From UHGV virus genome UHGV-1368455: DNA of 64,000 nt, one strand, 5' to 3'. This document shows, piece after piece, positions 9,356-64,000 of this stretch. The notes below the pieces were generated by a model. It was given only the letters and a program-made list of their open reading frames with translations. It ran no database searches and was not told the origin of the DNA. This DNA comes from a virus. A program made the position numbers and the translations under genes. Every line of letters begins with the position of its first letter. Position 1 is the stretch's first letter.

Positions 9356-10169
9356 GCGTATAATTGCTAAAATAGACAATGATTTCAATCCTGATAATAG
9401 TGATTGGATTCCTCGTGTTGGAGCATGGTGTATTGACGCAATGTCTATGCTCGATTGTCTTTGTACTAAACGTACTAAGAAAACTATTACTGTTAAAAAC
9501 AGAATAGCTTATGTTGGTTGTCCTATTAATAATATGAATATCAAAATATATGATTCTAATGGTTGTGAAATAGAAGAAGCTAATAATAAGAAATGCGGAT
9601 GTAATAATCCCTCTACGGGGGAGGTTGAACAATCTACAACGACAAAAATTAGTACGGCAGTTAGTCGTTATGAAGCCAATGCGCCTATTACAAAAGCTCC
9701 TGATTATTTATTAGCTGAAACTCTTAATGATAAAGAATGGCCTGGACGTTATAGAATTAATGAATTTAATTATGTTAATGGACAACAAAATATTAATAAA
9801 AATTATGTTATTACTGGAAATGATAAAATAGAACTTAATTTTGATACTAAATGTATTACTCTCGAATATGATACTATTGAAACTGCTCAAACTCAATTTG
9901 GTTGCGAACTTCCAGTTATTCCTAACAATGGAATACTTATTGAAGCTCTAACTTATTATTGTATGTATAAGATGTTATGTAGAGGTTATAAACATCCTGT
10001 ATTTAATCTTGCAGCAAGTCAATATGGTACTAATCCTTATTATATATGGACACAACTTAAAGATGAAGCTAAACGTTCTGTTATAGCTAATAGAGTTGAT
10101 ACTGATGAAGATATTAGTAAAATGTTTCGTAGTGCTTTTTATATTGATACTTTTGACCCTCGTAGATAA
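9327..10169 (+). CDS. hypothetical virion/tail protein (Cys-rich N-terminus)
   Basis: ORF-track start 9318 is TTG; first ATG at 9327. Contains in-frame motif copy (NPSTGEVEQ). Confidence 0.5.
   Translation: MQNKTVTNIERIIAKIDNDFNPDNSDWIPRVGAWCIDAMSMLDCLCTKRTKKTITVKNRIAYVGCPINNMNIKIYDSNGCEIEEANNKKCGCNNPSTGEVEQSTTTKISTAVSRYEANAPITKAPDYLLAETLNDKEWPGRYRINEFNYVNGQQNINKNYVITGNDKIELNFDTKCITLEYDTIETAQTQFGCELPVIPNNGILIEALTYYCMYKMLCRGYKHPVFNLAASQYGTNPYYIWTQLKDEAKRSVIANRVDTDEDISKMFRSAFYIDTFDPRR
9606..9630 (-). repeat. motif copy 2, reverse orientation (AATCCCTCTACGGGGGAGGTTGAAC)
   Basis: Inside CDS 9327..10169, translated NPSTGEVEQ; 23 of 25 nt identical to copy 5. Confidence 0.9.
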
Positions 10170-25807: not shown

Positions 25808-28800
25808 GTGGGGCTAATAACAGCTTTCACAATCCATAATATTTTTTCAAAACAACAAATTCAAACTATTGTTCATTATAGTGATGAATCTTATAACGGA
25901 GATAGTAATATGAATTGTACAATTAATGACCTTAATTTATCATTTGATAAAGATAATCGGCTTCGTACCACAATTGGACGTGTGGCTGGTTGGAGTGTTG
26001 ATAAGGCTTATGTCCTTGCAAGTTTTCTTCAAGATGAAAGTTTTAAGAAGTATCTTTCTAAAATGCTTACAGATAAAGATATTATAGGAGGTGCTGCTAT
26101 TGACTTGAAGAATATAACCGATAACGATTATATAAATATTAATCAGAATAAACTTGGTAGTCTGCTTAATGTTTATTATATTGACCATTATCATAGTGTA
26201 AATAATAGTAAAACTAATAAAGCTCTTGGTAGACTCAATGGCTTTAGTAGTGGTACAGCTAAAACTGTGGGCTTAAATTATACAGCCGACCGTATTATTG
26301 ATAAATACTATGACGAATTTGGTAAAGCTAAACCTAAAAAATCACAAGAAATAATTGCTGAAGTTATTAATGATATTGAGCATGAACTTTATAAGCAAGT
26401 TAATTTATTTGCAAATAATGTTATTAGTAGCGATAAATATTCTAAAGCAGCTCGTGATTATGCTCAAAAATTTATAGATATTATTAAACGTATTGAAGAA
26501 AATAATAATAAAATAAAAGAAACTACTATTTTCGCCAATGCTAATAAAAATCAACTTCGTCAATATAATGGTAAAAAAGTTACTGAAGAAGAAAAATCTA
26601 TAATTAAACGACTTACCGATATTGATAAACAATATAAAGAAGAACTCGCTTCGCTTGGTAAAGATAATGCTCGCGCCGCGTTAGACCGTTATGTTATTGC
26701 ACAAAACTTAGTTAATCTTTATGCAAACAATGTTGATGGTGCTTTGAATAAACGTCTTCGTAACTTTGCTAATCTTGTTGCTCAAATGAAAGGAGATACA
26801 AATGGTTGGTTCTTTCAAGTTATGAATACTAAACGTATGACTTCTATTGTTAAAGAATTTAATAATATTGGTGACATAGAAGAATATATTGAACAACAAG
26901 ACGAAAATAATGACAATATTATTGATAAATATAATGGTCAAGATGTAGACCAAACTACTAAATCTTGGGAAGATAGTCTTTATAAATCTTTTAATTCTGC
27001 CATTAGCGGAAAGATGAGAATTATACTTTCTCGTGTTCCTAAACTTTCTTCTCCTTTTAATCCTACTGCTGAAATACAATCGCTTGATACAGAAAATGAA
27101 CTTGGAGTTAAAACCTATATGGATGCTCAATTTATTACTGTTCAAATGTTTAGCTTTGGTGATTTCAGTGATATTGAATCTATGGTTAGAAGCATTGAAC
27201 GTAGAGCCAATACTGTTGAAGAACTTTATGGTATTGGAATGCTTGTTAATCAAATGAAACAAGATAAAGTTTTTGCTAATTATATGTATGCCAATTTCGC
27301 TAAACCTCTTGTTAATAAAACAATGTGTGTTATTAGCGATTTAACTAAAGAAAGTGGTATTACTTTTAATTATAGTAATGCTAATGCTTTCTATTCTACT
27401 AAAATGGCATTTGATATGATGAATAAACTTCGTGCTTCTTATAATACTCAATATGATATTAACGATTATAAAACTATTCAAGCCCTTGGTAATAAACTTC
27501 GCAATCCTAAACTACCAATAGAATTTGATGATACTGAAATTATTTACAATACTTTACTTAAATATTTTCCTAATATTAAACGTGAAGTTTATGATAATTT
27601 TTTACGTGGAATTAAAGATGATAAACGCAATGCTTTAATTAATTTTACTCAAAATCTTATAGCTATTATTAATGGCGCTGGTGCTCTTAAAACTAAAATT
27701 AACACTGCTATTGAAGAATCTAATAGAAAATATAATAATGCTAAGAAAAAGTTTAATCAAGATTATAATGCCTATTTGGAAGCTGGAGATACTCAAGCTG
27801 TTAAGCAAATGAAGTATCCAACTTATCAAGGAGTTGATTATACTGAATATGATTTAGACCCTAATACTCTTAAAGCTGTTATTAGACTTGCAGAAAATCT
27901 TTCAGATTATTCTGCTTCTAAAGCTCGTCTTAATACTGCTAACGCTGAGGGCAATACTGCTTCTGATGTAACTAAAAACTGTTATATAACACGTTTCTTT
28001 GAACAAATTAATGCTGGTACAGAAGAAGATTCTAATGCTGGCCTTCATGCTTTATTAGATTATATAACACAAGGTACTGAAAATGGTAAAGAAAATCAAT
28101 ATTCTAATAATCCTCTTTTCTTTGGTGTTAAAGATGAAAATGGAAGAGTAATTATACCTGGCATGTTTACTCGTGTCGGAGATATATTTAATATTAATAA
28201 AAACGCTAAAGAAATACTTAATTATAGTCTATTTGACGGTACAAAGAATACTCAAAGCGGAAATGGTAGTGGATATGCTTCTATGTCTAAACTTGATTTC
28301 TTTGTTACTCAATATATAGCTTATGCTAATAGCGTTGGAGATATTAATGAGAATGGTATAAATAAGAAAATAGGTAATCTTGACAGTTCTGTTTATGCTA
28401 TGCGTATTGGCAGTGATGCACCTAAAATTTATATGATACGCGCTCCTCGTTATAATTATCGCCAACTTCAATATGCTTTCTATAATCATCTTATGGATGA
28501 ACTTAATATGTATGTTAATAGTCTTAATAAGATATTTAGAAAGAATAATGCTGGAGAATATAAACTTATTACTACTACTAATGGTCTTTATGGTAGAGCA
28601 TTCTTTGATGAAGGTGCTGCTGATAATCTTCGTAAAGACGGAAAGAAAGATATGTCTAAAGCATTTGTTGAAGAAAATAATGGTAGACTTCAACTTGCTG
28701 GTAAAATGTTTAAGTTTCTACGTCTATTTGATGCTAATGGACATAGTGCAGCAACAGATATTGAAACTGTACTATCTCTCTACGGGGGAGTTGATGCGAA

Positions 28801-31800
28801 TGCAACGTCGTTATTTATCAAAGACGGCAGAACTAAACTTAAACTTAATAAAGATTATATTAATAGTGAAAATGGTTTTATTAAAGAATTAACTGATGAA
28901 CAAGGTACTCGTTTTGTACTTGATTTAGGTGCTACTCAAAAGAAAGCTCTTTTGAACATTGTCGATAATTGGATGAAAGATGTTCTTCAAGAATCTACTG
29001 CGAGAACAAGTGATTTCGTTCAAGCTATGGAACATAATAATATTCAATATACTCAACCTATGATTCAAAGTTTTATTCTTAACGCTTTGAATATGAATAT
29101 GAATTATGATGATATGTTTGAAGGAGATTTTAAGTTTTATAATAATGCTCGTGATTTCCTTAAACGTACAAAAGAAAGTCAAGCTGGAGGAGATGGTTGT
29201 AGCGGTTATAGATTAACGGAACTCCCCCGTAGAGGGATAACTGAGAATACTTATTTTGGCGAGCCTGAAATTATAAATGTTAAGACTGCTAAAAATACAG
29301 AAGCTGGGACTTATATTGTTCCTACTTATGATAATGGTAGTATTGTTAACAAGCCTATGACTGCTCGTAATGGTTTTAGAGCTGTTACTATTCATAATAC
29401 TATTAAACCTTCTGATGTTGCTATGGACTTGCAAGAAACTCTTGAAGAGGAATTTATTTCTCAAGGTATGAGTAAAGAGGACGCTCATGCACGTTCAGTT
29501 AAAATCGCTGGAGGTTATTTTGCTCAAACAAAAGTTAATGATGCGCAGTCATTTATTACTCTTGAAGAATTTATACGTCGTAAATATGCTGATGGTACTA
29601 TTGGCAATTATCAAGATTTAATTGCTCAACTTCTTGACCCGAATGTTAAAGCTGAAGATATTGATGTAGACGCTGTTAATGCTCGTATTCAAGTTCAAAA
29701 GAACTTCTATTTTGATAAGCAATTCGACCCTTATACTGGAACTTTTGTTCCTCGTCAAATTAAAAACGCTGAATTTGTACTTATTCCTAAATTGCTTCCA
29801 CAAGATAGCGATTTAATAAAAGTTTATGAGTGGATGCGTGCTAATGATATTGGACAGCTTAATACAGCTGAAACTGATAAAGCCGCTAAGAAAAATATAT
29901 TTACTATATGGAGTGAAGATACAGGTGAATTTATTGACCCTCGAAATAATAAAAAATTTAGAGAAGATTATATTCAAAATTATTATTATCAATATCTTTA
30001 TAAACAACAAGATGTTCCTCAACACATGATTAATGAGGAAAATAAACTTGGAGCACAAATTCAAAAGAAGATTATTGATAATGTTTCTACTGCATCTAAA
30101 CAAGTTCAAGATTGGGCTAATGAATATCAAGAAGCTCTTGTTGAAAATATTAGAGAAGATTATATTAGATTTCTTGATAGAATGGGATGGGAATATGATT
30201 CTGAATCTGGTCATATTGTCAACAGCGAATATGCTACAAAAGATGCAAATGGCAATCCTCTTCCTGCCGAAGTTATTAAATCGAATAGAGAAACATTAAA
30301 TCTTACTGATTTTTATACTCGTGCTCGTGAAGAAGCCGCTCGTTTAGGTATGGATAGTAATTTTATAGAATATCTTATTCCCAACGAATTTGGTGTTACT
30401 ACTATGCCTAACTTAATGAATAATGTTGCTTCTAAACTTGAAAGTGTAGCACAAGCTTTATTTAATAGAACTGTTACTCGTCAAACTATGCCTGGATGGC
30501 ATGCTGCTCAAGTTACTGATGTTGGTTATAGTCGTCGTCTTCTTAAATTTGACCCTAAAACTGGCGTTATGGAAGTTTATCTTCCTCGTTGGAGTAATCT
30601 TCTTCCTAAACCTAAAAATGCTGAAGAAGAAAAGAAACTTCTTGAACAAATAGCTAAAGAAGGACTTGATATACATCTCGGTTATCGTATTCCTACTGAA
30701 GGTAAACAATCTATATCTGTTCTTAGAGTAGTAGGTTTTACTAACGATGCGCTTGGTTCTACAATAATTGTTCCAGAAGAATGGGTTACTCAAACTGGTT
30801 CTGACTTTGACGTTGATAGTATATATGGTATTAGTTATGAAATATATGCTAAGAAAGATAAGAAAGGTAACATAACTGTTTATAAAATACCTTGTGAAGA
30901 AGATAAAGTAGATAACGACAATCTATATATTAACTATGTAAACTCTCGTCTTGAAGATAAAGTTAAACGTAGCGATATAGGTGAAGAAATTGAATCTCGT
31001 ATTAAAGAACTTCGCGATAGTCTTAAAGCTCAAATTGGAGATAAACTTAATTCTAATAACGCTGCATTTGTTGCAGTTGATACTCAACGAAATGAATTAT
31101 TTAATAAACTTCCTGCTTGGGCACGTGGTATTATAGTTAATGAGCAAACAAAAGCTAAACGTGTTGCTAAGAAAGATAAAGTAAGTGTTGATTTGCGTGG
31201 TGAATATCAAGTGATTAATAAATTGTTTGATGAACAACTTACTAAACGTAACTTAGATGATGCTACTGCCGATATTATTAAACAATATATGGACTATCAA
31301 ACTTCGTTGATTAATATAATGAACGAACAAGATGGTATTACTACTTTTGATAAAGACGAATATATTAGTTCTAAAAAAGATATAATTGCTACTGCTGTTG
31401 AGAATGCTCGAAAAGAACAAGTTAAACTTTGCGAAAGTAAAGCTAATGAAGTCGGGTTAATGAGTTATGACGACTTTATTAAACAACCTCTTATTAAACG
31501 TCTTTCTCGTAAAGCTCGCAATAATTATATTCTTGATAGAATGATTAATATTATGAACGATAGAAGTTCTCGTGAAGAACAGTATGGTCGTTCACAATTT
31601 GAAGGTATTGCTGGTGAAGAAACTTCTGCTAATGATATTATTAATAAAATAAGTGGTCAATCTAAACGTAGTTATAGTCCTTATAATCCTCTTGACCAAC
31701 TCGATTACTTTGAAGATGCAATGGGGGGCGCTCGTCTTAAAGCTCTTTCTGTAAATTGGGATACATTTGTTAGTAAATGTAATAGAACTCATCCAATTCT

Positions 31801-34800: not shown

Positions 34801-37800
34801 AATACAAGATTTTACTAATGAAGATGGAGATATTGTTAGATTGCAAATCGGTCATACTCCTACTAAAAATTTACTTAAAACTATTTATAATATTACTCAT
34901 GGCAAAAATGATAGTAACATAAATCTTAAATATGCTATTAAACAACTTGCAGAAACTAATACTCGACCAAATGCTGCTAATTATTTCTATATAACACAAG
35001 TTCCTCTTACTAATGAAGAAGCTGAAGAAAGATTAAATGCAGCAACCGATTTAATTGCTGATGATTCTGTCGTTGAAGACGCTGGGCTACCCCGTAGAGG
35101 GACATCTCGTGTCAATATTGATGTTGTTAGTGCTTCTGTTATGAAACAAATTCAATATGAAGCTCTTAAAAACAATAATGCTATTGCAAGACGTTTTATT
35201 CAAACTATGGAACGTCGTGGTATTAATAGAAATTATCGTAGTTCTCTTGCTGAACACCGTAAAGATATTTATCGTGCTGCCGCAAGATATTATCAATCTG
35301 CTGCAAATAGTCTTATTAATGCTCTTAATGGTTATGAAATAGCTGGACAAACACTTCGTATGGATAGTCCTGAGTTCTTTGAAGAACTTGCTAAACATGA
35401 TGAAGAATTTAATAAAGTAGCTAAAATTATTCTCGACGCTGTTACTTTTGGCAATCGTATAGCTCCTATTATGCAACTTGATATTGCCGCTGAAGATAAA
35501 GAAACTAAAGAAGGTATTCAATCTATTCAAAATAGTATTAATTCTATTAGAACTAATACAGGATTTAAGACCGCTCTTGCTAATATGTTTAATATATATT
35601 TCAAAAAATATTCTACAAATCCTGACATTAGTGATGGTATTCTTAATCTTCGTGACCAATTTGGTGATATAGATACCATCGTTGCTCTTATTTCTGACCC
35701 TGCTGAAATTAATAATAATGAAGTTCAAGTTATTCTTAAAAACATTTATAGTATGTTTAGTAAAGCAGAAATGTTTGATACTGAACGTAATATAAAAGAA
35801 TGGAAAGAACAACTTACTAAAATTGATGCTATGACTGAAAGTCTTGATATGGATAAAATTATAGATTCTGAACACGGTATGCTTCGTCAAGACTATAATG
35901 ATAAATACCTTGAAGATAAACAAAAAGTTATTGATGATTTTAATGAGGCTCGCAAATATAAAGATGAAAGTCAAGAAGCATTTACTAAATATATTAAAGC
36001 TAAATATGCTCGTGATGAATTTATGTATAAACATCAACATCAACTAATTGTTGATGATTATTATAAAGAAGATTTGGCTATGCGTAAAGAAGTTATGGAT
36101 AAAGCCAAAGATTTATATTATGAGTATATGCGTTATATTACTGAACTTTATAATTTGAATACTGGAGAAGATGAAGATAATGAAGATGTTAAGAAACGTA
36201 AAACAGAACTTATCAATCATATTACTGCAATACGTGCTGACAACGATATAACAGGAGAACTTAAACCTATTCAGCAACGTATGAAAGTTAAAGCACTTAA
36301 TGATTATATTACTAAACATAGAGAACTTGCTCATAAATATTTTAATACACAAGAATATGATGGTTTTCAAGAAGACTATAATCGTTATAATGATTATATT
36401 AAATATCATGATAAAACTCATAAACGTTTAAGTCTTGAAGAAAAACTTGATGACCCAGAATATCGTGAAGCATATAATTGGATTAAAAATAATGGTAAAC
36501 TTAGATATACTGATGAAGCCGCTGTTAAAATTGCAAACGCTTTTGATGTATTAACTAAACGTCAAACTGCTATTTCTAATAAGACTTTGCATGCTATTCG
36601 TAAAATGGAAGGTGTTATTGATGATAATGGTATTATTGATGGACGTAAGTTAACAAATGAACAAATTGCTCAACTTCGTGAAGAAGAAATGGATGAACTT
36701 GCTACTAAATATGAGAATGGAAATGGAGAAATGATGCTTATCAAAATGATTTCCGTTCGTCCTCCTATTATGAATAGTCGTCCAAAGGATGATGAAAGTA
36801 AAAAAATACTTATGGATTTACAATATAAAGATAATAAACTTAAATTTAAGATTATTCAAAATATTAACGAAATACTAATGAAAGCTGTTGACGCTGATAC
36901 AGGAGAAGTCAATATGGTTTATTTATTTAATAATAATTATGTTACTAATGAAGATAGAGAAGAACTTGCTGAACTTTATAATCAATTACGTTCTTTAAGA
37001 AGTGAATCTCTCCGTAAGTTTAAGAAGAGAAAAAACAAAGTTTATGAAGATATTATTGACAATAATGCTTATAATAAAGCTAAAATATTTTATGATACTC
37101 TTCCAAAAGGTTCTATTCAAGCCAAACAATGGCTTAATATATTTACTGAATTAGATGCAGACGGCAATCTTGTTCCTAACAGTAATTTATTTGGTTATCA
37201 TCAAGCTAAAGAAGATTTTATTGACCATGATAAAACTAATGCAAGAGATTTTATATTTGATAATATAGAGTTTGTTCCTAATGAATATTATTGGTTAGCT
37301 GCTGAAGAACATAAAGAAAAAGGTGATTATGATGAATGGTTTAGACAAAATAATGTTTATAATCCTTATACTCATAAATATGAGCCTTTGAAAATATGGA
37401 CTACAATGCAAGCTAAACCTGATAGCGAACTTGCTAAATCTATTGAATATGTGCCTACGTTTGATAATATGGAACGTAGTGTTAAAGAAGAATATATCAA
37501 TACTAATTTCAAAGAATTTAGTCCTAATTATAAGAAAGGTGATTCTAAATATGATACTAATATTAAACTTAATCTTAAAGAACAAGCACTAAAAGATTTA
37601 ATTCAACAAACGTTGAATAAATATGCTACTACTTATCAAGGACGTAAATTTGTCGGACGTGGATTTTTACCTCGTTCTCGTTCTGTACAAATTAATCCTC
37701 GTTGGGCTGGTGGTCAATTAATGTCTTTATTTGGTGTTAGTTGGCATAGTGGTGCCGATAGTGATAGTTTCCATGATATTGTTGACTATTCTCATGATAG

Positions 37801-40570: not shown

Positions 40571-40594
40571 ATCCCTATACGGGGGAGTTCGACG
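40571..40594 (-). repeat. motif copy 10, reverse orientation, intergenic (ATCCCTATACGGGGGAGTTCGACG)
   Basis: Left arm of inverted pair in gap 40546..40704. Confidence 0.85.
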
Positions 40595-40655: not shown

Positions 40656-40678
40656 GGGCTACCCCGTAGAGGGATAAA
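40656..40678 (+). repeat. motif copy 11, intergenic (GGGCTACCCCGTAGAGGGATAAA)
   Basis: Right arm of inverted pair; 61-bp interior. Confidence 0.9.
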
Positions 40679-47234: not shown

Positions 47235-47982
47235 ATCTTGCAATTATATTTTGATAAACGTCCAAAACTTTATAAAATAAATTAAATAAAGTAGTATTAT
47301 TAGTAATAGTATATTCGCAATCAATATCAATTTGTTCAGATATATGTATGGAATTGTCATCGTTGTGATTATTTTTTTCACGAGTGACCATAATAACTCC
47401 CCCGTAGAGAGGATGTTGTTGTATGGTTTTAGCTTCATTCGTAAATCTAACATCTGGAATAAGACAAATACCATACAAACGATTAATATTGTCAACTTTA
47501 TTCATAGTAGCTCGTATCCAAATGTCGTCACCAAGATATTTTCTACATATATCAGTTCCAAAAAATTGTAATATAGTTCTAATTTTTATAACACGAAGTT
47601 TTTTAGTATTTTCTAATTGATAACTAAAATATTCAGGAGAATTAACAAGAGAACTATATTCAATAATCTTATAAACTTCTTGATGATGAATTACATCTTT
47701 ACAATCATAAAATTTGCAATTATCAATACAAAAGAAAGAATTATCTTTATAGTATTCATCATCAAGATATTCTCTTGGTATATTATAAATAGCAGATACA
47801 CAATCTCTAAGAGCGTCGGCAAAATGAACAGATTTACGTTTAGCTCTATCTTTATTAGAAACTCTATTAGCAATCCATTCTTGATAATTAGCTTTAGTAA
47901 CTCCAACAGTGTGTATATAAGCAATCATATTAGCAATGGTATCTTTGCCAGATTGTTTTTTACCACATATTCCAATAATCAT
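47209..47982 (-). CDS. P-loop dNMP kinase-like protein (T4 gp1-like)
   Basis: Walker A GICGKKQSGKDTIANMI matches the T4 dNMP kinase SGVKRSGKDT. Carries motif copy encoding HPLYGGVIM. Confidence 0.5.
   Translation of the reverse strand: MIIGICGKKQSGKDTIANMIAYIHTVGVTKANYQEWIANRVSNKDRAKRKSVHFADALRDCVSAIYNIPREYLDDEYYKDNSFFCIDNCKFYDCKDVIHHQEVYKIIEYSSLVNSPEYFSYQLENTKKLRVIKIRTILQFFGTDICRKYLGDDIWIRATMNKVDNINRLYGICLIPDVRFTNEAKTIQQHPLYGGVIMVTREKNNHNDDNSIHISEQIDIDCEYTITNNTTLFNLFYKVLDVYQNIIARYENNKTKR
47395..47414 (+). repeat. motif copy 12, variant (AACTCCCCCGTAGAGAGGAT)
   Basis: Inside minus-strand dNMP kinase-like gene, read as HPLYGGVIM. Confidence 0.85.
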
Positions 47983-48870: not shown

Positions 48871-50081
48871 ACAAATCTTGTAGTTTTAATATGCCATGGG
48901 AGTTGATTAACTCCACTTCTTTCGCCATACTCTACAAATACTTTCTTGCCAATATAATGATTCTTTGCTTTAAGTATAGATTTTTGATAAGATTGAGTAC
49001 CACCAATATGTATTTCAAAAGTAGCATCATTAATATCATTTCTACATACAAGAAGAGGAATATCTGGACGTTTAATACCTTCGGGTTTAATATCAATTAC
49101 CTCAAATATACCATCAGTAGATTTTTTATACTTAATCATTATATTAGCAGAACGTTTACCAAAAGCATATTCGGCATCTGGATTACGAAGAATAAGACCT
49201 TCAAATCCACAATTAATATTATTATTACGAGCAATTAATGCTTCAGTAGGAGTAGAAACTTCAACATGAGGAAGAACAACTAATCTTTCAGTATTAGCTA
49301 AATGTTCTTCTTTATTAACAAAGGGTTTAACAAACCAACTCAATTTAGCTTCAAGTATTTCAGTACGATAATATTGTAGTATATCTTCAACAGCTAAATC
49401 ATAACACCAAAATTGAATAAATTTATTTTCTTTACAATAAGGGTCTTTAATAAAATGATTCAGCTGATTAACAGTATAACCGGGAATATATAATTCGCCA
49501 TCAAGAACTATATTTTCAGAAGCCATACGAGCAAGAAAATCTTTTGGCATAATTTCGAGAAGATAATCTTCAAGATAAGTAAGACTATTCCAAAATGTTC
49601 CTTCACGAGATTGAAAACGAAGTCCAATAGGCTTAAATAAACTACTTCCAATAAGATGAGCACTAATAAAACATCTAAGACCATTAATTTTATATTGTCC
49701 TATATAAGAACTACAACGGTCAAAGACTTTATCATCATAAACTTTAGCAAGCATAGCAAGTAAAGTATCATTAGCTCCAGCACGATTATAAGGCAGATAT
49801 TTATCAAGATAAGATAACAATTCTTCCTCTACGGGGTAGTTCGTATTATCTTTAATATCAGCAAGAGTACGATAACCAGTTTTAATCTTTGCTTTTATAC
49901 GTGAGCTAATTTCATCTTCAACTTTACGTCGAGTGGCAACTACTTCATCAAGCATAGTTTTACCTATAATACCATGACGAATATGTATAAAATGGTCATC
50001 TCGTTTAACAGCTTCCCATACACATATTTGTCCATAATTATTACGACGATAAAGAGCAGTTAAATAATTAAACGGATACAT
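48867..50081 (-). CDS. ATP-dependent ligase-like nucleotidyltransferase (motif I KINGLR, unusual KxNG)
   Basis: YKINGLRCF fits KxDGxR of DNA ligases/capping enzymes with D replaced by N. Size (404 aa) and position in replication block fit a ligase. Carries motif copy (NYPVEEELL). Confidence 0.45.
   Translation of the reverse strand: MYPFNYLTALYRRNNYGQICVWEAVKRDDHFIHIRHGIIGKTMLDEVVATRRKVEDEISSRIKAKIKTGYRTLADIKDNTNYPVEEELLSYLDKYLPYNRAGANDTLLAMLAKVYDDKVFDRCSSYIGQYKINGLRCFISAHLIGSSLFKPIGLRFQSREGTFWNSLTYLEDYLLEIMPKDFLARMASENIVLDGELYIPGYTVNQLNHFIKDPYCKENKFIQFWCYDLAVEDILQYYRTEILEAKLSWFVKPFVNKEEHLANTERLVVLPHVEVSTPTEALIARNNNINCGFEGLILRNPDAEYAFGKRSANIMIKYKKSTDGIFEVIDIKPEGIKRPDIPLLVCRNDINDATFEIHIGGTQSYQKSILKAKNHYIGKKVFVEYGERSGVNQLPWHIKTTRFV
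49823..49843 (-). repeat. motif copy 13, variant (CTTCCTCTACGGGGTAGTTCG)
   Basis: Inside minus-strand ligase-like gene, read as NYPVEEE. Confidence 0.75.
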
Positions 50082-51174: not shown

Positions 51175-52300
51175 CTATTATTAGTTCATAAACATTATTA
51201 ATAGGAATAGATTTAACTAAATCAGCAAAATCTTTTGCTTTATATTTTTTATTAATAAGAAAAGGCTCGATTCCAAAATTACGTTTAAGCCAAATAGCTT
51301 CACGTTTACCAGTACTATCATTATCCATTAAAGATACAATACTTCCATTGATAGATTTATTTTTAAGCCAATCATATTCATTTTGACGAAGACGATAAGT
51401 TTCATGAGGAATATTTATAACTCCAACTCGCATCTTATCAATATAGCCGATATTGTCAATACGAACTCCCCCGTAGAGGGATAATGCTTGCTTTATTGTG
51501 CATCCTAAGCTAACTCTATCTTTTGTAGACTTAGTAAGTACAATAATATCATAATCATTTCTGTTAAGATTATAAATACCTTCGAGATGATTACAATTAG
51601 TTATAAATCTATCTTGACCTTTCTTACGTTTAGGAAAATATAATTTAATATTATATATACCATTTCTATCAATACCAAGGTTATAACCATAACAAGGGTC
51701 TTTTATGGTATAATAATATTTAGGTTCTGGATTAACTTTTCGATTAATATAATATTGTTCAACAGGATAAATAAAATTAATATTAAGAAAAGAAATAGAA
51801 ACATTAAATTGTTTCCAATATTCTATATCTTGATTATTCCAATCTCTAACAACAAGTTCTATTACTGGCTTTTTACGTTTAATATTTGCAATAGCAGTAT
51901 TAATGGAATTAATAAGAGTAATGTCTTTTTCTTGTCCATAAAATATATCCTTAAATGTAAAAGTAATATGCCTAAGAACTTTAATAAAATCATTTTTATT
52001 AGATATATCATAAGGTTTACTATACATTTCAGACATAATATAAGCAACAGTATCAAAACAATCGCCCCAAAATCCATCATTACCAAAATCCTTAAATTTA
52101 AGTTTTCCTTTATTATTATATCTAAAACCAGCAGTAGGATGAACGTCTACACGAAGAGGATTACAAATAAGTTCTCCAGTATCTATACAACGTTGTATTT
52201 GTTCAATAGGAATACCAAGATATGTAGCAAAAATATTAACTTGTGATACTTTTTCAAGTATCATTTGTTTAGTAAGTCGAGAACTATTTATATTTCTCAT
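51074..52300 (-). CDS. DNA primase with TOPRIM domain (DnaG-like)
   Basis: TOPRIM DxD motif in LMDNDSTGKREAIW. ORF-track start 52372 is TTG and would overlap the upstream terminator, so ATG at 52300 (MRNINSS...) is preferred. Carries motif copy (ALSLYGGVRI). Confidence 0.5.
   Translation of the reverse strand: MRNINSSRLTKQMILEKVSQVNIFATYLGIPIEQIQRCIDTGELICNPLRVDVHPTAGFRYNNKGKLKFKDFGNDGFWGDCFDTVAYIMSEMYSKPYDISNKNDFIKVLRHITFTFKDIFYGQEKDITLINSINTAIANIKRKKPVIELVVRDWNNQDIEYWKQFNVSISFLNINFIYPVEQYYINRKVNPEPKYYYTIKDPCYGYNLGIDRNGIYNIKLYFPKRKKGQDRFITNCNHLEGIYNLNRNDYDIIVLTKSTKDRVSLGCTIKQALSLYGGVRIDNIGYIDKMRVGVINIPHETYRLRQNEYDWLKNKSINGSIVSLMDNDSTGKREAIWLKRNFGIEPFLINKKYKAKDFADLVKSIPINNVYELIIDAIKYIKTNELQSKREDNKPVRDTDGNNNSLPF
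51462..51484 (+). repeat. motif copy 14 (CGAACTCCCCCGTAGAGGGATAA)
   Basis: Inside minus-strand primase gene, read as LSLYGGVR. Confidence 0.9.
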
Positions 52301-55356: not shown

Positions 55357-56733
55357 CTACAAAACAATACCGTTAATATTTTCATCATAATCAAAATTAT
55401 TTTCTGTTTCATCTATATAATTGACAAACGGCAAAGGTTTATCCTTATTAATCTTTACTTGTTCGATAGTATTATTACAATAAACACGATAAGTTTGTAG
55501 AGTTCCAGCACCAAAATTAATATTAGTAAAACGTAGCTTCAAATCTCTAATCGAATGACATAATGCTGATGTAAAAATAACGCAATTACAAGCTATATTT
55601 AGCTTTGTATCGGACGCTTCTTTGATAGATAAGGCATTGATAATCTGATTGTTAAATAGCCGTTCATTAAGCGTGGACTGGGCAGCCGATTTAATAATCT
55701 TTGGTTTACCCTTATTAACTCCACTCTTATAAAGCATAACATTACCAGTCATATCAGTAACAATAGCATCCTCAATACAATCATGATAATCTCCACATTT
55801 TATTTGTGTTTGATTATCATTGATATATTTAGTAATTTTAGCAGCATATTCTCCTCGCTTAGAAACTATGAGTATCTGTTTATCAAGATTAGCAAGTACA
55901 ATATCTAATATAGTTTGAAATTTAGCTTCATTATCGCTAACAAAATCTCTTCGTTTTTTAGCTATATTAAAGAAATTATACGCTTTCTCGTAAAGAGCAT
56001 TAGGATTGTAAGTATCATCAATTTGTTTAATAAAATCAATATTAGTATCAAGAGTTTCATTCCATCCATTTTGTTTAGCAAAACTATCTCTAAATTCAGC
56101 AGCACTTATTCCAAGATTAGGAACACCAACTTTACATTTTTCAATAACATCTAAACTACCAAATATAGAAATACAATTAGTAATATAATCGTCATATTTA
56201 CTATATTGTTCTGCATCATCAATAGACAAATCAACCCCATACCGATGTTCCTCTACGGGAGAGGTCAAACGGTCAACAGCAACAGTAGCAGAAATATCTG
56301 TTACCATTATATTTGGTAATATAGAACGAACATTATTAATAAATTCATTATTCATAATATTTTGAGTAAGAATACAAAGAGTAAATTTACTTTCATCAGT
56401 AAGATGCTTAATAATATCATAGTTATTAACTCCGATTATAATAGTAAAATGATAAGTATAGTGATACCTACCATTAATAAATTGTTCAGTAAGTAACTTA
56501 ATATTAGTCATATTAAGACTTTTATCTTTAAGATAACCTACTAAACGCATTCGCATTCGATAATCATTAAGAACTATAAATGTATTAGCATTCGGAGTTT
56601 TATTTAATATTTTAGTAATAGCATTGTAAACAAGTTCAAATACAACTTCATCATCAAAACAATAAAGACTTGATTTACCTTTATTATTTCGAAAACTATC
56701 GAGAACTTGTGTAAAATATGTATTTCGGTTCAT
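55357..56733 (-). CDS. hypothetical replication-associated protein (458 aa)
   Basis: No Walker A seen; carries motif copy (LTSPVEEHRY). Confidence 0.5.
   Translation of the reverse strand: MNRNTYFTQVLDSFRNNKGKSSLYCFDDEVVFELVYNAITKILNKTPNANTFIVLNDYRMRMRLVGYLKDKSLNMTNIKLLTEQFINGRYHYTYHFTIIIGVNNYDIIKHLTDESKFTLCILTQNIMNNEFINNVRSILPNIMVTDISATVAVDRLTSPVEEHRYGVDLSIDDAEQYSKYDDYITNCISIFGSLDVIEKCKVGVPNLGISAAEFRDSFAKQNGWNETLDTNIDFIKQIDDTYNPNALYEKAYNFFNIAKKRRDFVSDNEAKFQTILDIVLANLDKQILIVSKRGEYAAKITKYINDNQTQIKCGDYHDCIEDAIVTDMTGNVMLYKSGVNKGKPKIIKSAAQSTLNERLFNNQIINALSIKEASDTKLNIACNCVIFTSALCHSIRDLKLRFTNINFGAGTLQTYRVYCNNTIEQVKINKDKPLPFVNYIDETENNFDYDENINGIVL
56247..56271 (-). repeat. motif copy 15, variant (GTTCCTCTACGGGAGAGGTCAAACG)
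   Basis: Inside minus-strand 458-aa gene, read as TSPVEEH. Confidence 0.7.
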
Positions 56734-56735: not shown

Positions 56736-59090
56736 TTAATCGAAGTCTTCATCATCAAAAAGAGATTGATATTGACCACTCATTTGTTTAAGGAGTGCTT
56801 TACCACTTTTAGTACCTTTATTTTTATCTCCTTTCATATTAGGAGAAATACGTAGTTTGATAGGGTCAATAATTTTAAGAGCTTCTTTATAATAATAATT
56901 ATAATTAATATTTCTAAACTCTATTCGCTTATCATCGAGAGAATTAAGAATTTGAACTTTTTGTCCAGCACATAAACCATTCTTAGCAAAACTATCATTG
57001 TGAACTTTATAAATAAATCCACCTTGACTAGAAGCATAAAATCTTACATATCTTTGCATAGGAATAATTTTAGTACCTTCAATATATTCAACATGAAATT
57101 GCTTACCAACATTTTGTGTAAGACAAAAATCAAGAATATTCTTACTATTATAAAGAGTTTCAAGTACAGGAATACCTTTGAAATAATTAACAACAGCACG
57201 AGCAACAATTGGCATAGAATAACCTTTTGATAAATCTTTAAGATACATAAATTCATTTAATGCACCTTTCGCATCAGTTTTACCATTAAGTTCTTCTACA
57301 AAATAGTTATTAATATCTCTATTAATATAATAAAGATATTCTTCACTATCTGCATCAAGACCAGTTAATTTCTTCCAATCAGCGGCAATTTTATCAAAAG
57401 TATCTTTTTTAGATTTATATAGTTTCACAACTATACCATCTGTATTAGCACTTATAACTTCAATACCATTAAGCTCAAGTTCTTCACATAGCATCATAAT
57501 CATTAACTGACCATTAATAGTAACTTTGAGAGTGGCCATTCTATCAAATAAATCCCCTTTCTCAAAACCAAATTTACCATAAATAGAATTAATGACAATT
57601 TTTAATACTTGAGCAAGCACATCAGATGGAATACCATCAATAGGTTCATTACTATGTTTAGCTTTAATACGAGTATCTTTAATCCAAGTTACAAGTTTAG
57701 TAAAAACACTTTCAATCATGTGTTTAGGAGCAATATGATATACAGACATAATAGAAGGATAAAAGCTACTTATATCCCAATGTACATAAATATAACTATC
57801 ATCAGCAATATGTTCCCAAATACTGTCGTTCTTGTTCGTAGCAATCTCTCTAATTCGTTCTATCTCCCCCGTAGAGGGATAATCGGTGAACATTATTTTA
57901 CTTTTGAGTTCTCTTGGCGTATCTTGACTATGTAAACCGCCAGTTGCAATAGTATAAGTAAGATTACCTAATTTTACTTCACGAATGAACGCATCTTTAC
58001 CAACACTATATACAACAACTTTCTTCATATCTGCAAGCAAATCTTGAAGAGGTTTAGTCTTAAATTGAATAAACGGAAAAATAACACGTTTGAAAGCCAT
58101 AGCAGTACGTTCAGTCTTTTGTCCACGCCATTGTTCAGGAGCAAGACCACTAAACTCACTGTAAAACTTAATAAACATTTTATCCGCAATATTACTTCGA
58201 GAACTACTAAGAACATCTATTTTATAAGCACGAGAAATACTATAACGCAATTTAATTTCATCCATGTAAAGTCTAATCATTTCGCATACAATGAAAACAT
58301 CATTTGCATTATAATACATAGTAGGTTCAATCCATTCGTCGATAATATATCTATCCCACTTTTCAACAAGTCTATTAACTTTATCTGCAGGAAGACCTTT
58401 TAATGTAAGATTATTTTGATATAAATGAATATCTTTATCGCTAATTGGAGGAAGCTCATATTCAAGAATTTCATACCATTGTAAATTAATAGAAGTCTGT
58501 TTAAGACCTTTACCAAAATAAATAGTATCTCCTTTCTGATTTTTACCTTTACCAACTTTATTAAGTGCAAAGATAGTCATAATATCAATATCTACATAAG
58601 GTAGCTTATTCTTTTTAAGATTGGCAAGAAGATAATCATGACGAGCAAGTTCTTCATTATCTTGCATACTAATAATATGTTTACTCAACTCATATAATTT
58701 AGTAATAAGTTCTTTTGTTGAATTAACTTGATTAGCCCACATAAGTAAACCACTAACCATAAGTTTATCATATTTAGAACTATTATAACCAAACATATCA
58801 GTACGAATAGCTTTTCCATCATCATCAACAAATGGACGCATATTATTAATAGTTGCAAGCATTTGAAGTAATTGACTATCGTCTTTATCAGTAATATAAA
58901 AAGAACAACGTTTAACAATAGCAAGTCGTTCTTTAATTTCTTTTACAGTAAGTTTTTGAACGAGAGGAATAGGTTTACCTTTCTCGTTTACACAATCAGC
59001 AAATACTCTTAGATAATCATTAACATCAGTAATAGTAATGCTAAAGAAGTTAGGTAAAACTTCAACATCGTAAGAACGAGAAAGTATCAT
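56736..59090 (-). CDS. polB: family B DNA polymerase with 3'-5' exonuclease
   Basis: Exo I YDVEV; motif A DISSFYPSIM; motif B KIVINSIYGKFG; motif C ISANTDGIVV. Carries motif copy (DYPSTGEIERI). Confidence 0.9.
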   Translation of the reverse strand: MILSRSYDVEVLPNFFSITITDVNDYLRVFADCVNEKGKPIPLVQKLTVKEIKERLAIVKRCSFYITDKDDSQLLQMLATINNMRPFVDDDGKAIRTDMFGYNSSKYDKLMVSGLLMWANQVNSTKELITKLYELSKHIISMQDNEELARHDYLLANLKKNKLPYVDIDIMTIFALNKVGKGKNQKGDTIYFGKGLKQTSINLQWYEILEYELPPISDKDIHLYQNNLTLKGLPADKVNRLVEKWDRYIIDEWIEPTMYYNANDVFIVCEMIRLYMDEIKLRYSISRAYKIDVLSSSRSNIADKMFIKFYSEFSGLAPEQWRGQKTERTAMAFKRVIFPFIQFKTKPLQDLLADMKKVVVYSVGKDAFIREVKLGNLTYTIATGGLHSQDTPRELKSKIMFTDYPSTGEIERIREIATNKNDSIWEHIADDSYIYVHWDISSFYPSIMSVYHIAPKHMIESVFTKLVTWIKDTRIKAKHSNEPIDGIPSDVLAQVLKIVINSIYGKFGFEKGDLFDRMATLKVTINGQLMIMMLCEELELNGIEVISANTDGIVVKLYKSKKDTFDKIAADWKKLTGLDADSEEYLYYINRDINNYFVEELNGKTDAKGALNEFMYLKDLSKGYSMPIVARAVVNYFKGIPVLETLYNSKNILDFCLTQNVGKQFHVEYIEGTKIIPMQRYVRFYASSQGGFIYKVHNDSFAKNGLCAGQKVQILNSLDDKRIEFRNINYNYYYKEALKIIDPIKLRISPNMKGDKNKGTKSGKALLKQMSGQYQSLFDDEDFD
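57861..57885 (+). repeat. motif copy 16 (TATCTCCCCCGTAGAGGGATAATCG)
   Basis: Inside minus-strand polB, read as DYPSTGEI. Confidence 0.9.
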
Positions 59091-62134: not shown

Positions 62135-62205
62135 TTGGAGTAAGAGGATTCGAACCTCTACTAACAGAATCAAAATCTGTGGTGCTACCGTTACACTATA
62201 CTCCA
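62135..62205 (-). tRNA. tRNA-Gln (anticodon UUG)
   Basis: Minus-strand sequence TGGAGTATAGTGTAACGGTAGCACCACAGATTTTGATTCTGTTAGTAGAGGTTCGAATCCTCTTACTCCA. 7-bp acceptor stem; D arm GTGT/GCAC; anticodon stem ACAGA/TCTGT with loop TTTTGAT; T arm AGAGG-TTCGAAT-CCTCT. Confidence 0.75.
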
Positions 62206-62376: not shown

Positions 62377-62841
62377 TTATTTACGATTTCTAAGAAGAGC
62401 AATGAGTTCTTCTTTGCTCATAGTATCATAATCGTCAGAGGGTTTAGCAGCAAGAGCTTTTTGACATTTATCAGATGTGCATTTCAATGTAGCATTAATC
62501 ATACGATAAAAACGCATATTATCATTTATAATGCTTTTAAGCTCATCTTTACTCAAATTACTAATATTATTATCGTCTCTATTAAAGACAATTAAATTAC
62601 GAATGACAGCTTTACAAATATCGCTCCAAGTGTCAACTTTATCATATTTACTATTATTGGCAAGCCAATCAACACAAGCATGATGTTCTTTAACAAAACG
62701 ATGATTATCACTGGATAATGTACCAGCAAGCATCTCTTCTAAAATATCAAATATATTCTTTTTCATATTAATATCCAAATTCATTGGCAGCTTCTTCATC
62801 ATTATCACCTTCAATAACTTGTGGTTCAAAACCGATTTCAT
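62377..62841 (-). CDS. hypothetical protein (154 aa; alternative start ATG at 62766)
   Basis: Preceded by the motif inverted pair. Confidence 0.45.
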   Translation of the reverse strand: MKSVLNHKLLKVIMMKKLPMNLDINMKKNIFDILEEMLAGTLSSDNHRFVKEHHACVDWLANNSKYDKVDTWSDICKAVIRNLIVFNRDDNNISNLSKDELKSIINDNMRFYRMINATLKCTSDKCQKALAAKPSDDYDTMSKEELIALLRNRK

Positions 62842-62920
62842 CTAAATCAGTATCAAAGGCTTCACTATGAATAGCAATACCATCATCTTCATAAATGTTA
62901 TTCATACGAGATAGAATTAA

Positions 62921-62940
62921 ATACCCCGTAGAGAAGATAA
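62921..62940 (+). repeat. motif copy 17, variant, intergenic (ATACCCCGTAGAGAAGATAA)
   Basis: Left arm of second inverted pair in gap 62842..63023. Confidence 0.75.
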
Positions 62941-63000
62941 CTGTGTTTATTGCAACTTTACTAATAATAGTATGGCACTAAGCAACAACTAAACATTAAT

Positions 63001-63022
63001 AATCCCTCTACGGGGTAGATTT
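63001..63022 (-). repeat. motif copy 18, reverse orientation, intergenic (AATCCCTCTACGGGGTAGATTT)
   Basis: Right arm of second inverted pair; 60-bp interior; ends 1 nt before stop of 63024..63632. Confidence 0.9.
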
Positions 63023-63023: not shown

Positions 63024-63632
63024 TCAATCTACATCAGCAGTTGCGTTATCATCTGTCGCAACAGAAGAAGTAGCATTACGTTCATTAAGTTCAACAATGT
63101 TATCAACCTCGTCTTGGTCAACAGCTTTTGTAATACCAACGCTCATTTCTTTATGACAGAAAGCGTCGATAGTGCGTTGAGCAGAAGCACTGAAAGAACT
63201 AAATGAAGCAACAAGTGCATTAAGAAAGAAAGGCTCATTGTAAGAATACTCACGCATAAGACCGTTACACTTAACAGCAAATTTATTCCACTTAAAGGTA
63301 ACATAACGATGTTCACCACGTATTTCACCTTTTTGCAGAAGATAATTAAGAATACCAAGAGCAGTGAATCGACGAATCTCTGCATTATTCTTAATAAGCA
63401 GAGCAATATTCACATAATGCTCAGGATAATTCTTAGCCGTATCAGGAATACCAGCTTTCTTACTCTTACGAGTAGGAGCTTGTGCTGGTTCAGCAGGAGC
63501 AGTAGCTTCTTCTGGATTAGCAACCTGTGCTGTTTCAACAGCATTTTCTTTGTTAGCACTTGCTGCAAGAGCAGCTTTCTTTGCTGCATAACGGCTACGT
63601 GCAGCAACACCATTTTTCTTTAATTCAGTCAT
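63024..63632 (-). CDS. hypothetical protein with Ala/Lys-rich histone-like N-terminus (202 aa), first gene after upstream AT-rich leader
   Basis: N-terminus AARSRYAAKKAALAASANKE...; higher GC; 370-bp non-coding region upstream. Confidence 0.5.
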   Translation of the reverse strand: MTELKKNGVAARSRYAAKKAALAASANKENAVETAQVANPEEATAPAEPAQAPTRKSKKAGIPDTAKNYPEHYVNIALLIKNNAEIRRFTALGILNYLLQKGEIRGEHRYVTFKWNKFAVKCNGLMREYSYNEPFFLNALVASFSSFSASAQRTIDAFCHKEMSVGITKAVDQDEVDNIVELNERNATSSVATDDNATADVD

Positions 63633-63702
63633 GACTGTAAGATTTTAATTGTTAGTATAATTATTATTACTAAGAGCAATATTACTATCACTCTTACATT
63701 TG

Positions 63703-63734
63703 CAAAGATATAATAATATTATTATATAGCCAAA
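63703..63734 (-). promoter_or_regulatory. putative Bacteroidetes-type promoter on minus strand: TTTG (63734..63731), 20-nt spacer, TATCTTTG (63710..63703)
   Basis: Reverse complement of CAAAGATA and CAAA with consensus spacing; ~70 nt upstream of ATG 63632. Confidence 0.35.
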
Positions 63735-64000
63735 TAATTAACAAAATAATTTCGACTAATAACAATTATATTGCCGATAATAACTATAAAATTAGCTATT
63801 TTAATACCAGCAGTAATAACTTTAATAATATTGTTATTAATAGTGTTCATAATCAAACTATATATTATATTTGTCCTCCAAAATTAGAATGAACAAGTAT
63901 TTTTAATTGATAATATAGTTGAGAATGAAATTTAGAACGTACAACAGGTGTAAGATGCAGCTGTTGGCAATATTTACAATATAACTCATATTGATGATTA

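Follow-up and report, generated by a model that had tools for sequence, protein, structure and literature searches.

A predicted intergenic hairpin in a crAss-like phage, with one arm drawn from a genome-wide dispersed motif

An inverted pair of short sequences at positions 62,921–63,022 of the window (the whole 64-kb stretch of phage DNA analyzed here) stands at about an even chance of working at the level of RNA, as a hairpin that would serve as a terminator/attenuator or a processing site after the first cistron of a leftward gene block. Comparison of relatives and of their predicted folds indicates that structure is conserved at this spacer and interior sequence is not. The element would belong to an ordinary kind of intergenic hairpin (terminator/processing), unusual only in that one of its arms is a copy of a motif that occurs genome-wide. 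The motif itself, dispersed and evenly spaced, is the noteworthy result and reaches beyond the pair that had been flagged.

The window is 30% G+C (70% A+T). A late block runs rightward over 1–40 kb and includes tail genes and ORFs of 2237 and 4722 aa, and a leftward block at 40–64 kb encodes dUTPase, ThyX, dNMP kinase, ligase, primase, PolB, and an SF1 helicase. Among deposited phages, only crAss-like ones matched at the nucleotide level, namely ΦcrAss002, crAssphage ZA and LMMB, and a single record for an unclassified phage from human faeces. By these matches, therefore, the source phage is crAss-like and far from the cultured ones. The features in and around the pair are as follows.

63703..63745, minus strand: TTTG ... 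TATCTTTG, a candidate promoter of Bacteroides type that precedes the 202-aa ATG by ~70 nt; a consensus match only.
63024..63632, minus strand: 202-aa gene, which opens the leftward block within the limits of the window; stop codon at 63024–63026.
63003..63018, plus strand: motif copy TCCCTCTACGGGGTAG, 15/16 against the consensus TCCCTCTACGGGGGAG; antisense to the surrounding minus-strand genes and 5′ arm of the predicted minus-strand transcript hairpin.
62937..63002, minus strand: interior of 66 nt; self-pairing, extending the stem into an imperfect hairpin of ~100 nt.
62921..62936, minus strand: degenerate motif copy CTTCTCTACGGGGTAT, core 10/10 and 11/16 overall; sense to the genes and 3′ arm of the hairpin.
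62768..62905, minus strand: 45-aa acidic-protein gene, ATG at 62905; homologues at the equivalent place in L068–L071 and L076.

The inverted 12-nt arms claimed in the original prediction are real: TACCCCGTAGAG (62922–62933, plus strand) and CTCTACGGGGTA (63006–63017) are perfect inverted 12-mers with 72 nt between them. Sequence and gene coordinates also agree with its placement of the pair 1 nt after the stop of 63024..63632, and the G+C-rich stem (63004–63017) begins 5 nt after the stop codon, in sense orientation. The next ATG had been put ~80 nt away, which is wrong. The degenerate copy is followed by UUUAAUUCUAU and then by the ATG of the conserved 45-aa acidic ORF at 62905, 15 nt past the end of that copy (62921) and 16 nt past the last paired base (62922). 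Homologues of this ORF occupy the equivalent position in relatives (E 1e-7 to 1e-12), and the gene is also called as such in L115 and L119. The ORF earlier given as 154 aa most likely starts at 62766 (129 aa). The pair, with arms 66–72 nt apart, thus fills the spacer between the 202-aa gene and the 45-aa gene.

Other annotation of the region is sparse. A promoter scan with the regular expression TAnnTTTG and an upstream TTTG found no Bacteroides-type motif inside the inverted pair on either strand, and TAnnTTTG was likewise absent between the hairpin and the next ATG. A simple sigma-70 and terminator scan was uninformative in the A+T-rich DNA of the window. In Rfam, a tRNA-Gln was the sole match at gathering thresholds, and neither inverted pair of the window matched at E ≤ 1. 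The 202-aa protein has 595 homologues, of which none is annotated. It received no Pfam, PHROG, or PDB-sequence assignment, similarity to the RepL-like proteins of crAssphage was not found, and its AlphaFold model (pLDDT 64, with a core of helix-helix-three-strand) gave no Foldseek match at E < 0.5. On these grounds, the protein was dropped as a candidate reader of the motif or initiator.

In predicted folds, 126 nt around the pair form one long imperfect hairpin, with an MFE of −39.4 kcal/mol (z −5.6) on the minus strand and −34.9 kcal/mol (z −5.4) on the plus strand. Though the arms lie 66 nt or more apart, the interior pairs with itself and leaves an apical loop of 4 nt. The arm-to-arm stem is complete on the minus (gene) strand, where all 14 positions pair (12 Watson–Crick and 2 G·U), and reaches 12/14 on the plus strand. 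In the window phage and in relatives L115, L117, and L119, the predicted stem spans ~100 nt, so that by prediction each holds an imperfect double-stranded RNA of at least ~20 bp. The 3′ flank in the window, UAUUUAAUUCUAU with the tail UAUUUAAUU, is moderately U-rich within a 70% A+T genome, and a consensus terminator scan made no call. The sense strand was predicted to fold better than the antisense strand in 19/19 orthologous spacers, as do 76% of random sense windows of the genome; with near-duplicates taken into account, P for this strand preference is about 0.005 to 0.03. The comparison was taken as weak support for an RNA role and not as proof of one, most of the signal being a composition effect.

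Equivalent spacers, each taken as the DNA between the 202-aa homologue's stop codon and the ATG that follows, came from relatives in IMG/VR and from contigs in ENA and Logan. A substantial predicted stem was present in every one of the 19 distinct orthologous spacers folded. In L097–L105 there is essentially no spacer, and the next gene starts ~10 nt after the stop. A motif copy stands right after the stop of the 202-aa homologue in L068–L073, L087–L096, L106/108, and L115–L119. Clades free of the motif (L083, L088/093, L110, L111, and L112) still have a predicted stem in the spacer, often with a U-tract (L083, L088/093, L110, and L111). U-tracts are clear in L094/095 (GGGCUUUUAAUC), L106/108 (...UUAUUUGUUUCUUUUU), and L088/093. 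The hairpin of L094/L095 is compact, with a 14-bp stem and a 5-nt loop; in L095, the spacer reads GCCCGUAGAGGAAC-AAUCA-GUUCUUCUAUGGGC, then UUUUAAUC, and resembles a textbook terminator.

Wherever a clade has the motif, an antisense copy of it makes up the arm adjoining the stop codon, and CCCGTAGA does not vary across the 11 relatives aligned. The downstream arm is a degenerate complement of it (e.g., GTTCTTCTATGGGC), in which C-to-U changes keep G·U pairing; one-sided changes across the 11 relatives turn G-C into G·U and leave the 5′ arm untouched. Paired bases fill 76% of cells, versus 43–53% with the partner slid, a fraction inflated by the alignment of the arms by hand from the proposed structure. 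The covariation score for the same relatives is 0.28 versus 0.19 (0/500 shuffles), with double changes at five pairs. On this sequence evidence, the two arms of the 62.9-kb pair are not equivalent: the stop-codon arm appears as a positionally conserved motif copy, and the other as a drifting pairing partner.

The closest comparisons come from L115, L117, and L119, whose 202-aa proteins are 85–93% identical to that of the window. All three keep the arms and a long predicted stem (−37.7 to −44.0 kcal/mol). In L119, the interior is unrelated in sequence and the stem is still extended, at −44.0 kcal/mol; since the long stem is kept with a completely different interior, it is the structure that appears conserved and not the interior sequence. 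The alignable interiors, those of the window phage, L115, and L117, share one orientation. Every close relative has its spacer slot filled, without presence/absence polymorphism, and a scan of IMG/VR for the composite returned two other contigs, both with it at other genomic positions.

The window holds a second inverted pair, at 40.6 kb, in the following arrangement.

40572..40587, plus strand: motif copy TCCCTATACGGGGGAG, left arm of the 40.6-kb pair; the copies point inward.
40659..40674, minus strand: motif copy TCCCTCTACGGGGTAG, right arm of the 40.6-kb pair.

This pair folds at −47.0 kcal/mol on the minus strand (z −5.9) and is kept as a longer hairpin in L034 and L055. The two pairs had been described as opposite in polarity, and they are: the copies 62924−/63006+ point outward, and 40575+/40662− point into the interior. 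The weak relationship that had been proposed between the two interiors was not borne out, as their best local alignment scored 19 against 14.2 ± 2.5 for shuffles (p 0.065), with p 0.10 against random genomic 66-mers. Nor does the idea of a ~100-bp composite with a related interior find support, given that the interior similarity is at chance and that L119 has its interior replaced with the arms kept.

Canonical intrinsic terminators consist of a compact hairpin with a loop of about 3–8 nt and a U-tract right 3′ of the stem, and the early mRNA of T7 is punctuated by RNase III sites. The 62.9-kb element resembles both in being intergenic, directly after a stop codon, in sense orientation, with a G+C-rich basal stem and a moderately U-rich 3′ flank. 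With the T7 RNase III hairpins it further shares a long imperfect duplex between cistrons of an early unit, whose predicted structure is conserved as its sequence drifts. Unlike intrinsic terminators, its stem-loop of ~100 nt is much longer than the canonical form, and its U-tract is weak in the window genome. Neither terminators nor T7 RNase III sites have a counterpart of the 62.9-kb arm that is constrained as a copy of a genome-wide motif.

The motif is a 16-nt sequence, TCCCTCTACGGGGGAG, with TCCCTCTACGGGG(G/T)AG as its underlying word. Searched as a 12-mer with up to two mismatches, it occurs 19 times in the window versus 1.15 expected from shuffles. The earlier census of two intergenic pairs and 14 intragenic solo copies is correct: the window has 18 good copies, 14 within genes and four in the two pairs. 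The solo copies are as follows.

8180..8195, minus strand: antisense in gene 7743–8426 (NSPVEG).
9608..9623, plus strand: sense in gene 9318–10169 (NPSTGE).
13717..13732, minus strand: antisense in gene 10169–14053.
15342..15357, plus strand: variant GGGCAAG, sense in gene 14749–16365.
21966..21981, plus strand: sense in the 2237-aa gene.
25398..25413, minus strand: antisense in the 2237-aa gene.
28775..28790, plus strand: sense in the 4722-aa gene (SLYGGV frame).
29222..29237, minus strand: antisense in the 4722-aa gene (LPRRG frame).
35087..35102, minus strand: antisense in the 4722-aa gene.
47397..47412, minus strand: sense in the dNMP kinase gene 47209–47982.
49824..49839, plus strand: antisense in the DNA ligase gene 48867–50081.
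51466..51481, minus strand: sense in the primase gene 51074–52372.
56248..56263, plus strand: variant GGGAGAG, antisense in gene 55357–56733.
57864..57879, minus strand: sense in the PolB gene 56736–59090 (YPSTGE, residues ~403–409).

Seven of these copies are sense and seven antisense to their genes, in several reading frames, so that the motif is read as PSTGE or SLYGGV in sense and as SPVEG or LPRRG in antisense. In relatives ~70% identical in DNA, many copies lie at homologous positions and are 88–100% identical, versus 57–68% for their flanks. For instance, the copy at 9608..9623 is 100% conserved in six relatives (flanks 65%), and motif identity at the primase copy (51466..51481) is 0.98 versus 0.58 for the flank, again in six relatives. 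The site at 8180..8195 has turned over, with a motif identity in five relatives of 0.38 versus a flank identity of 0.77. Together, the alignments argue for nucleotide-level selection on the motif within coding sequence, with some sites turning over. One relative's copy aligns with a decayed site at about 5944 in the window.

The solo copies do not behave as hairpins in their own right. Folded as DNA, they give mini-hairpins of −0.1 to −3.1 kcal/mol, no different from shuffles, and no partner arms beyond chance occur within 250 nt of them. The idea that they are self-contained hairpins was rejected, the fold being non-significant and the hairpin not conserved in the L072 clade. An ‘AACGAC’ box downstream, noticed by eye in copies of the window, was unsupported across 137 copies from relatives.

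Related words occur in other crAss-like phages, each lineage having its own form. ΦcrAss002 has 28 copies of CTCCTYTAYGGGGGAA and crAssphage ZA has 30 copies of TCCATCCTCYACGGGGRGT, while other metagenomic clades use CCTCTACGGGCAAGC, TTCCTTTACGGGGGA, or CCCTCTACGGGC(N)AGT. The common core is CCTYTAYGGG, and the 3′ half is lineage-specific and changes in concert within each lineage. For example, the PolB of crAssphage ZA is 55% identical to that of the window phage over the protein as a whole and has a motif variant of its own (FPSSTGG) in the equivalent variable loop. ΦcrAss001 is without the motif and has ~35 copies of another word, (Y)CNCTTCTGGAG. In Cellulophaga phage phi14:2, no 11–12-mer is strongly over-represented, and the notion of a motif universal across Crassvirales was rejected as stated, phi14:2 being without a comparable word.

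On each strand the copies are evenly spaced. Same-strand gaps are ~4–8 kb, with a CV of 0.33 in the window, 0.58 in ΦcrAss002, and 0.42 in ZA versus about 0.9 for random placement (P ≤ 0.0006 each), and the smallest same-strand gap in these three genomes is never below 2 kb. The regularity is lost when strand labels are shuffled on fixed positions (P 0.0004–0.03). Spacing of the ΦcrAss001 word is similar but weaker. Strands alternate in 57 of the 75 transitions pooled from the window, ΦcrAss002, and ZA, a pattern that interleaved lattices of similar period would produce. Tight opposed pairs are also enriched: seven opposite-strand pairs fall within 130 nt, versus 1.45 expected (P 5.5e-4), with arms 27–120 nt apart. 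All seven are intergenic, and six point outward like the 62.9-kb pair. Those of ΦcrAss002 are at 28,708/28,744 and 64,741/64,776; two of the three in crAssphage ZA lie just upstream of two RepL-like genes and have A+T-rich interiors. Neither the genome-wide regularity of the motif nor its presence in crAssphage and ΦcrAss002 figured in the original prediction.

Among the bacterial matches listed, which come from unrelated phyla (Streptomyces and others), the 16-mer stands as a single copy, and no locus has more than one; by our estimate, a few hundred matches are expected by chance in 596 Gb. A host repeat or Chi-like word was rejected, since bacterial copies among the matches listed are single and the Bacteroides phages ΦcrAss001 and ΦcrAss002 differ in motif. 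Sequence-string and keyword searches of the literature, of incomplete coverage, found no mention of the motif, including in Drobysheva et al. (bioRxiv 10.1101/2020.03.07.982082) and Yutin et al. 2021 (PMC7886860), and an earlier description is possible.

Several families of dispersed signals invite comparison with the motif. REPs lie outside genes, are variably present, and spread by means of RAYT transposases. Like REP, BIME, and REPIN sequences, the phage motif is a short, imperfectly palindromic unit with GTAG on one strand that occurs both singly and as inverted hairpin doublets. It differs from them in that 14 of its 18 copies are intragenic, several at conserved positions, and that it is even per strand and phage-specific, with no RAYT found among the ~35 window proteins scanned. 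Stoperators, 13-bp asymmetric sites for a repressor that are dispersed through the genomes of cluster A mycobacteriophages (e.g., L5), are mostly intergenic and oriented with transcription. The likeness to them lies in the many dispersed copies of an asymmetric site (18 in the window, 28 in ΦcrAss002, 30 in ZA) with a lineage-specific consensus, from which a co-evolving, phage-encoded reader is implied. In contrast to stoperators, the phage motif is mostly within genes, is split 7:7 between sense and antisense, and is evenly spaced on each strand separately; temperate crAss-like phages are not known. The motif is not tied to the direction of transcription.

Signals read during DNA synthesis offer a further set of parallels. 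The ssi or primosome-assembly signals are structured single-stranded elements of 40–100 nt that occur a few per replicon, with opposed pairs at origins. The phage motif is like those of RSF1010 (ssiA/ssiB) and the complementary-strand origin of phage G4 in being on both strands and found in opposed pairs, and its even per-strand spacing, with the strand-shuffle null rejected, would fit strand-specific action, as expected of a lagging-strand priming or reloading signal. It is unlike them in that the solo motif has no significant hairpin. Nick sites of T5/BF23, phiKMV-like phages, and Pseudomonas phage tf are likewise conserved asymmetric sequences at limited sites along a virulent genome; those nicks are reportedly mainly on one strand and are not said to be evenly spaced. 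Hairpin promoters of the N4 type, used by a virion RNA polymerase, have a stem of 5–7 bp and a 3-nt loop and lie upstream of early genes in sense orientation. They were rejected as a model: a mini-stem of 5–6 bp with a 3-nt loop can be drawn for the motif and is neither significant nor kept in the L072 clade, and motif copies lie all over the late genes in both orientations. In phi14:2, no shared motif is reported upstream of early transcripts (10.1101/2020.03.07.982082). The motif fits none of the known families of dispersed signals that were tested.

The even spacing on each strand, the indifference to gene orientation, and the joint, lineage-specific drift of the word together point to a phage-encoded reader that acts on one strand or in one direction. 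The reader is thus probably encoded by the phage itself, and the most natural candidates might be site-specific lagging-strand priming, reloading of a helicase or replisome, and programmed nicking, among which the data do not discriminate.

For the pair at 62.9 kb, a course of events at the RNA level can be outlined. The 202-aa gene would be transcribed from the candidate Bacteroides-type promoter ~70 nt upstream of its ATG. In the nascent minus-strand RNA, the antisense motif copy (63003–63018) would pair with the degenerate copy (62921–62936), and the resulting hairpin would either terminate or attenuate transcription or form a double-stranded processing and 3′-end-stabilizing site, in the manner of the RNase III sites of T7 early mRNA. 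By either route, the hairpin would set the ratio of the first cistron to the cistrons downstream. The upstream arm is also one node of the genome-wide, strand-specific, evenly spaced motif set, and, if that set has a reader of the kind proposed, the pair as a whole may represent one node of each strand's lattice in a common spacer, with the inverted repeat used or tolerated as an RNA hairpin. This reading is held at about even because the U-tail is weak, the strand preference is driven by composition, the alignment of the arms leans on the structure, and the basis is one of prediction. Also counting against a terminator is an apical region far larger than that of a canonical intrinsic terminator, and the genome-wide enrichment of tight opposed pairs counts against the RNA reading in being equally compatible with a role at the DNA level.

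In that role, which we consider an appreciable but clearly minor possibility, two opposed recognition sites would stand back to back as a site of bidirectional loading or priming or as an origin-like site, and the RNA hairpin would be secondary. The layout could be compared to ssiA/ssiB of the RSF1010 oriV or to inverted initiator boxes that flank an unwinding region. Same-strand copies are evenly spaced and opposite-strand copies may abut, as for a strand-specific or directional reader; the excess of tight, mostly outward-pointing pairs and the two ZA pairs upstream of RepL-like genes point the same way, as does L113, where a pair immediately past the 202-aa homologue stands at the start of the early block. 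Against this, arm spacing varies from 27 to 120 nt, and the interiors are unconserved and not always A+T-rich (about 43% GC by eye in L113). The second arm is in most relatives too degenerate for a motif copy, yet pairs through G·U; motif-free clades keep a hairpin in the equivalent slot; and the 202-aa protein has no similarity to RepL or to any solved fold. A somewhat smaller chance attaches to the hairpin being an unselected consequence of motif placement: one copy per strand would be needed here, and the spacer would be the cheapest place for both. The squeezing of 14 of 18 copies into coding sequence in several frames, with all four intergenic copies in pairs, is in keeping with such an origin. 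In L068/L069, moreover, the next same-strand copy comes another ~1.4 kb along the locus (9072+, 9081+), at a point with no such copy in the window, and the window's second arm could be this node relocated. What speaks against a by-product is that compensatory and G·U changes maintain pairing even in relatives whose second arm has ceased to be a motif copy, and that the stem extends well past the motif into the interior and is rebuilt from other sequence in L119. The RNA reading is ranked above both of these because the pairing itself appears to be selected, as judged from the G·U drift, the motif-free hairpins, and the rebuilt stem of L119.

Mobile or invertible DNA accounts far less well for the pair. 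A MITE- or REPIN-like element, with terminal inverted repeats, a short non-coding interior, and solo copies as its decayed ends, would explain the inverted termini, the occurrence of two such pairs in the window, and the many solo copies; it is nonetheless highly improbable and was already largely refuted by the unrelated interiors, the filled slots, and the conserved solo sites. The composite is found in only two other IMG/VR contigs, at other loci, and no direct repeat that would mark a target-site duplication is visible in the flanks of the 62.9-kb pair. Homologous sites in genomes ~70% identical carry solo copies, one of which lies in the PolB loop equivalent to that of crAssphage, and the motif is not repeated in bacterial genomes among the matches listed. 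Nor did any transposase, RAYT-like gene, or recombinase appear among the ~35 window proteins scanned. The same absence of a recombinase bears on a Bacteroides-style inverton, a promoter switch flipped by site-specific recombination on inverted repeats, for which we see hardly any chance at all. Inverted repeats of 12–14 bp around a short non-coding segment in a Bacteroides-associated genome would suit it, but the interior has no −7/−33 promoter motif on either strand, the interiors of the window phage, L115, and L117 are co-oriented, and an inverton has no need of a self-complementary interior.

More broadly, and with somewhat less than even confidence, we suggest that human-gut crAss-like phages (crAssphage, ΦcrAss002, and the window phage, with another word in ΦcrAss001) may keep a lineage-specific, asymmetric word of 12–18 nt on both strands, at even intervals of ~4–8 kb per strand, mostly within genes and held against synonymous drift. 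It would be read by a phage-encoded, strand-specific or directional machine, and where copies stand back to back in spacers they would additionally serve as RNA hairpins. That such a word is conserved, evenly spaced, specific to a strand, and imposed on coding sequence points to a sequence-reading step of the life cycle that lies outside current annotations. The motif can be tested on cultured phages, with 28 mapped sites in ΦcrAss002 and 35 sites of a different word in ΦcrAss001, and may prove useful for typing lineages and for tracking down the protein that reads it.

Copies of the 16-nt motif are evenly spaced on each strand in the window, ΦcrAss002 and crAssphage ZA, with gaps between same-strand copies having a coefficient of variation (CV) of 0.33–0.58, compared with ~0.9 under random placement. 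The smallest same-strand gap is at least 2 kb among the window's 18 sites and in the two other genomes, while opposite-strand copies lie as close as 27–120 nt in the three genomes. Across the same set, the strand switches between successive copies in 57 of 75 transitions.

The CCTCTACGGG word is wholly absent from ΦcrAss001 (MH675552), and this phage carries a dispersed word of its own, (Y)CNCTTCTGGAG / CTCTTCCTGAG, in ~35 copies on both strands. The smallest same-strand gap of that word is 1.5 kb (P<2e-4), and its CV is 0.69 (P 0.013). A crude search of Cellulophaga phage phi14:2 for 11–12-mers yielded none that was strongly over-represented, and by that measure dispersed words are not a universal of Crassvirales.

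Tight motif pairs that point outward occur in crAssphage ZA and in two IMG/VR crAss-like contigs, and a G+C-rich element, AGCG(G/A)AG..GCGAAGC, often follows intergenic motif copies and forms a helix of its own. These features are located as follows.
L079 28180-28345: tight outward-pointing pair, crAssphage ZA at 28.2 kb, arms ~30 nt
L080 46460-46650: tight outward-pointing pair, crAssphage ZA at 96.5 kb, arms ~30 nt
L114 8254-8324: tight outward-pointing pair
L113 10788-10868: tight outward-pointing pair
L068 9072-9130, L069 9081-9140, L071 6185-6240: G+C-rich element by the motif
L034 9725-9870, L055 2152-2297 and the crAssphage ZA pairs: further sites of this element

One ZA pair sits just upstream of each of that phage's two annotated RepL-like replication initiator genes, and the interiors of the two are A+T-rich and alike by eye (ATTAATGATAATGAT...ATTGATT). 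The L114 and L113 pairs are hairpins of -48 kcal/mol that occupy different spacers, one near the ligase gene and the other beyond the 202-aa homologue. The motif copy in each of L068, L069 and L071 shares bases with a stop codon (…SPSTGQ*). The G+C-rich element is not present at the window's motif copies.

The surroundings of the flagged pair in the window, all on the minus strand, include the following.
62134-62205 (-): early-region tRNA-Gln (UUG) gene (ARAGORN; Rfam, 67 bits)
62377-62766 (-): the ORF first called at 154 aa, more likely 129 aa
62768-62905 (-): conserved, highly acidic 45-aa ORF (MNNIYEDDGIAIHSEAFDTDLDEIGFEPQVIEGDNDEEAANEFGY) preceding it
63703-63745 (-): candidate Bacteroides-type -33/-7 promoter match

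The start at 62766, 2 nt past the stop of the 45-aa ORF, is the more likely one for the former 154-aa ORF. Upstream of the 202-aa gene, the promoter match falls inside a long non-coding stretch (63633-64000) that appears very A+T-rich; the leftward block starts beyond the window's end.

Individual copies turn over. The window's 8183(-) copy (8180-8195) is missing from the homologous position in five relatives, and a copy at 4512 in one relative, L017, aligns with a decayed window site at about 5944 (ACTCCTACTACTGGCGAG; region ~5930-5958). The PolB proteins of the window phage and crAssphage ZA are 55% identical, and each gene has its own motif variant (window 57864-57879; L079 10264-10280) in one indel-prone loop (YPSTGE vs FPSSTGG, residues ~403-409), directly C-terminal of the conserved GGLHSQD block.

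Two pairs of solo copies, each pair in different genes, have a few flanking bases in common beyond the motif, one pair at 9608-9632 and 21966-21990 and the other at 8176-8197 and 25394-25415, and therefore short peptide strings recur (NPSTGEVEQ and NSPVEGQ.AS, respectively, twice each). Such shared flanks hint that motif copies may originate through copying of a slightly longer segment.
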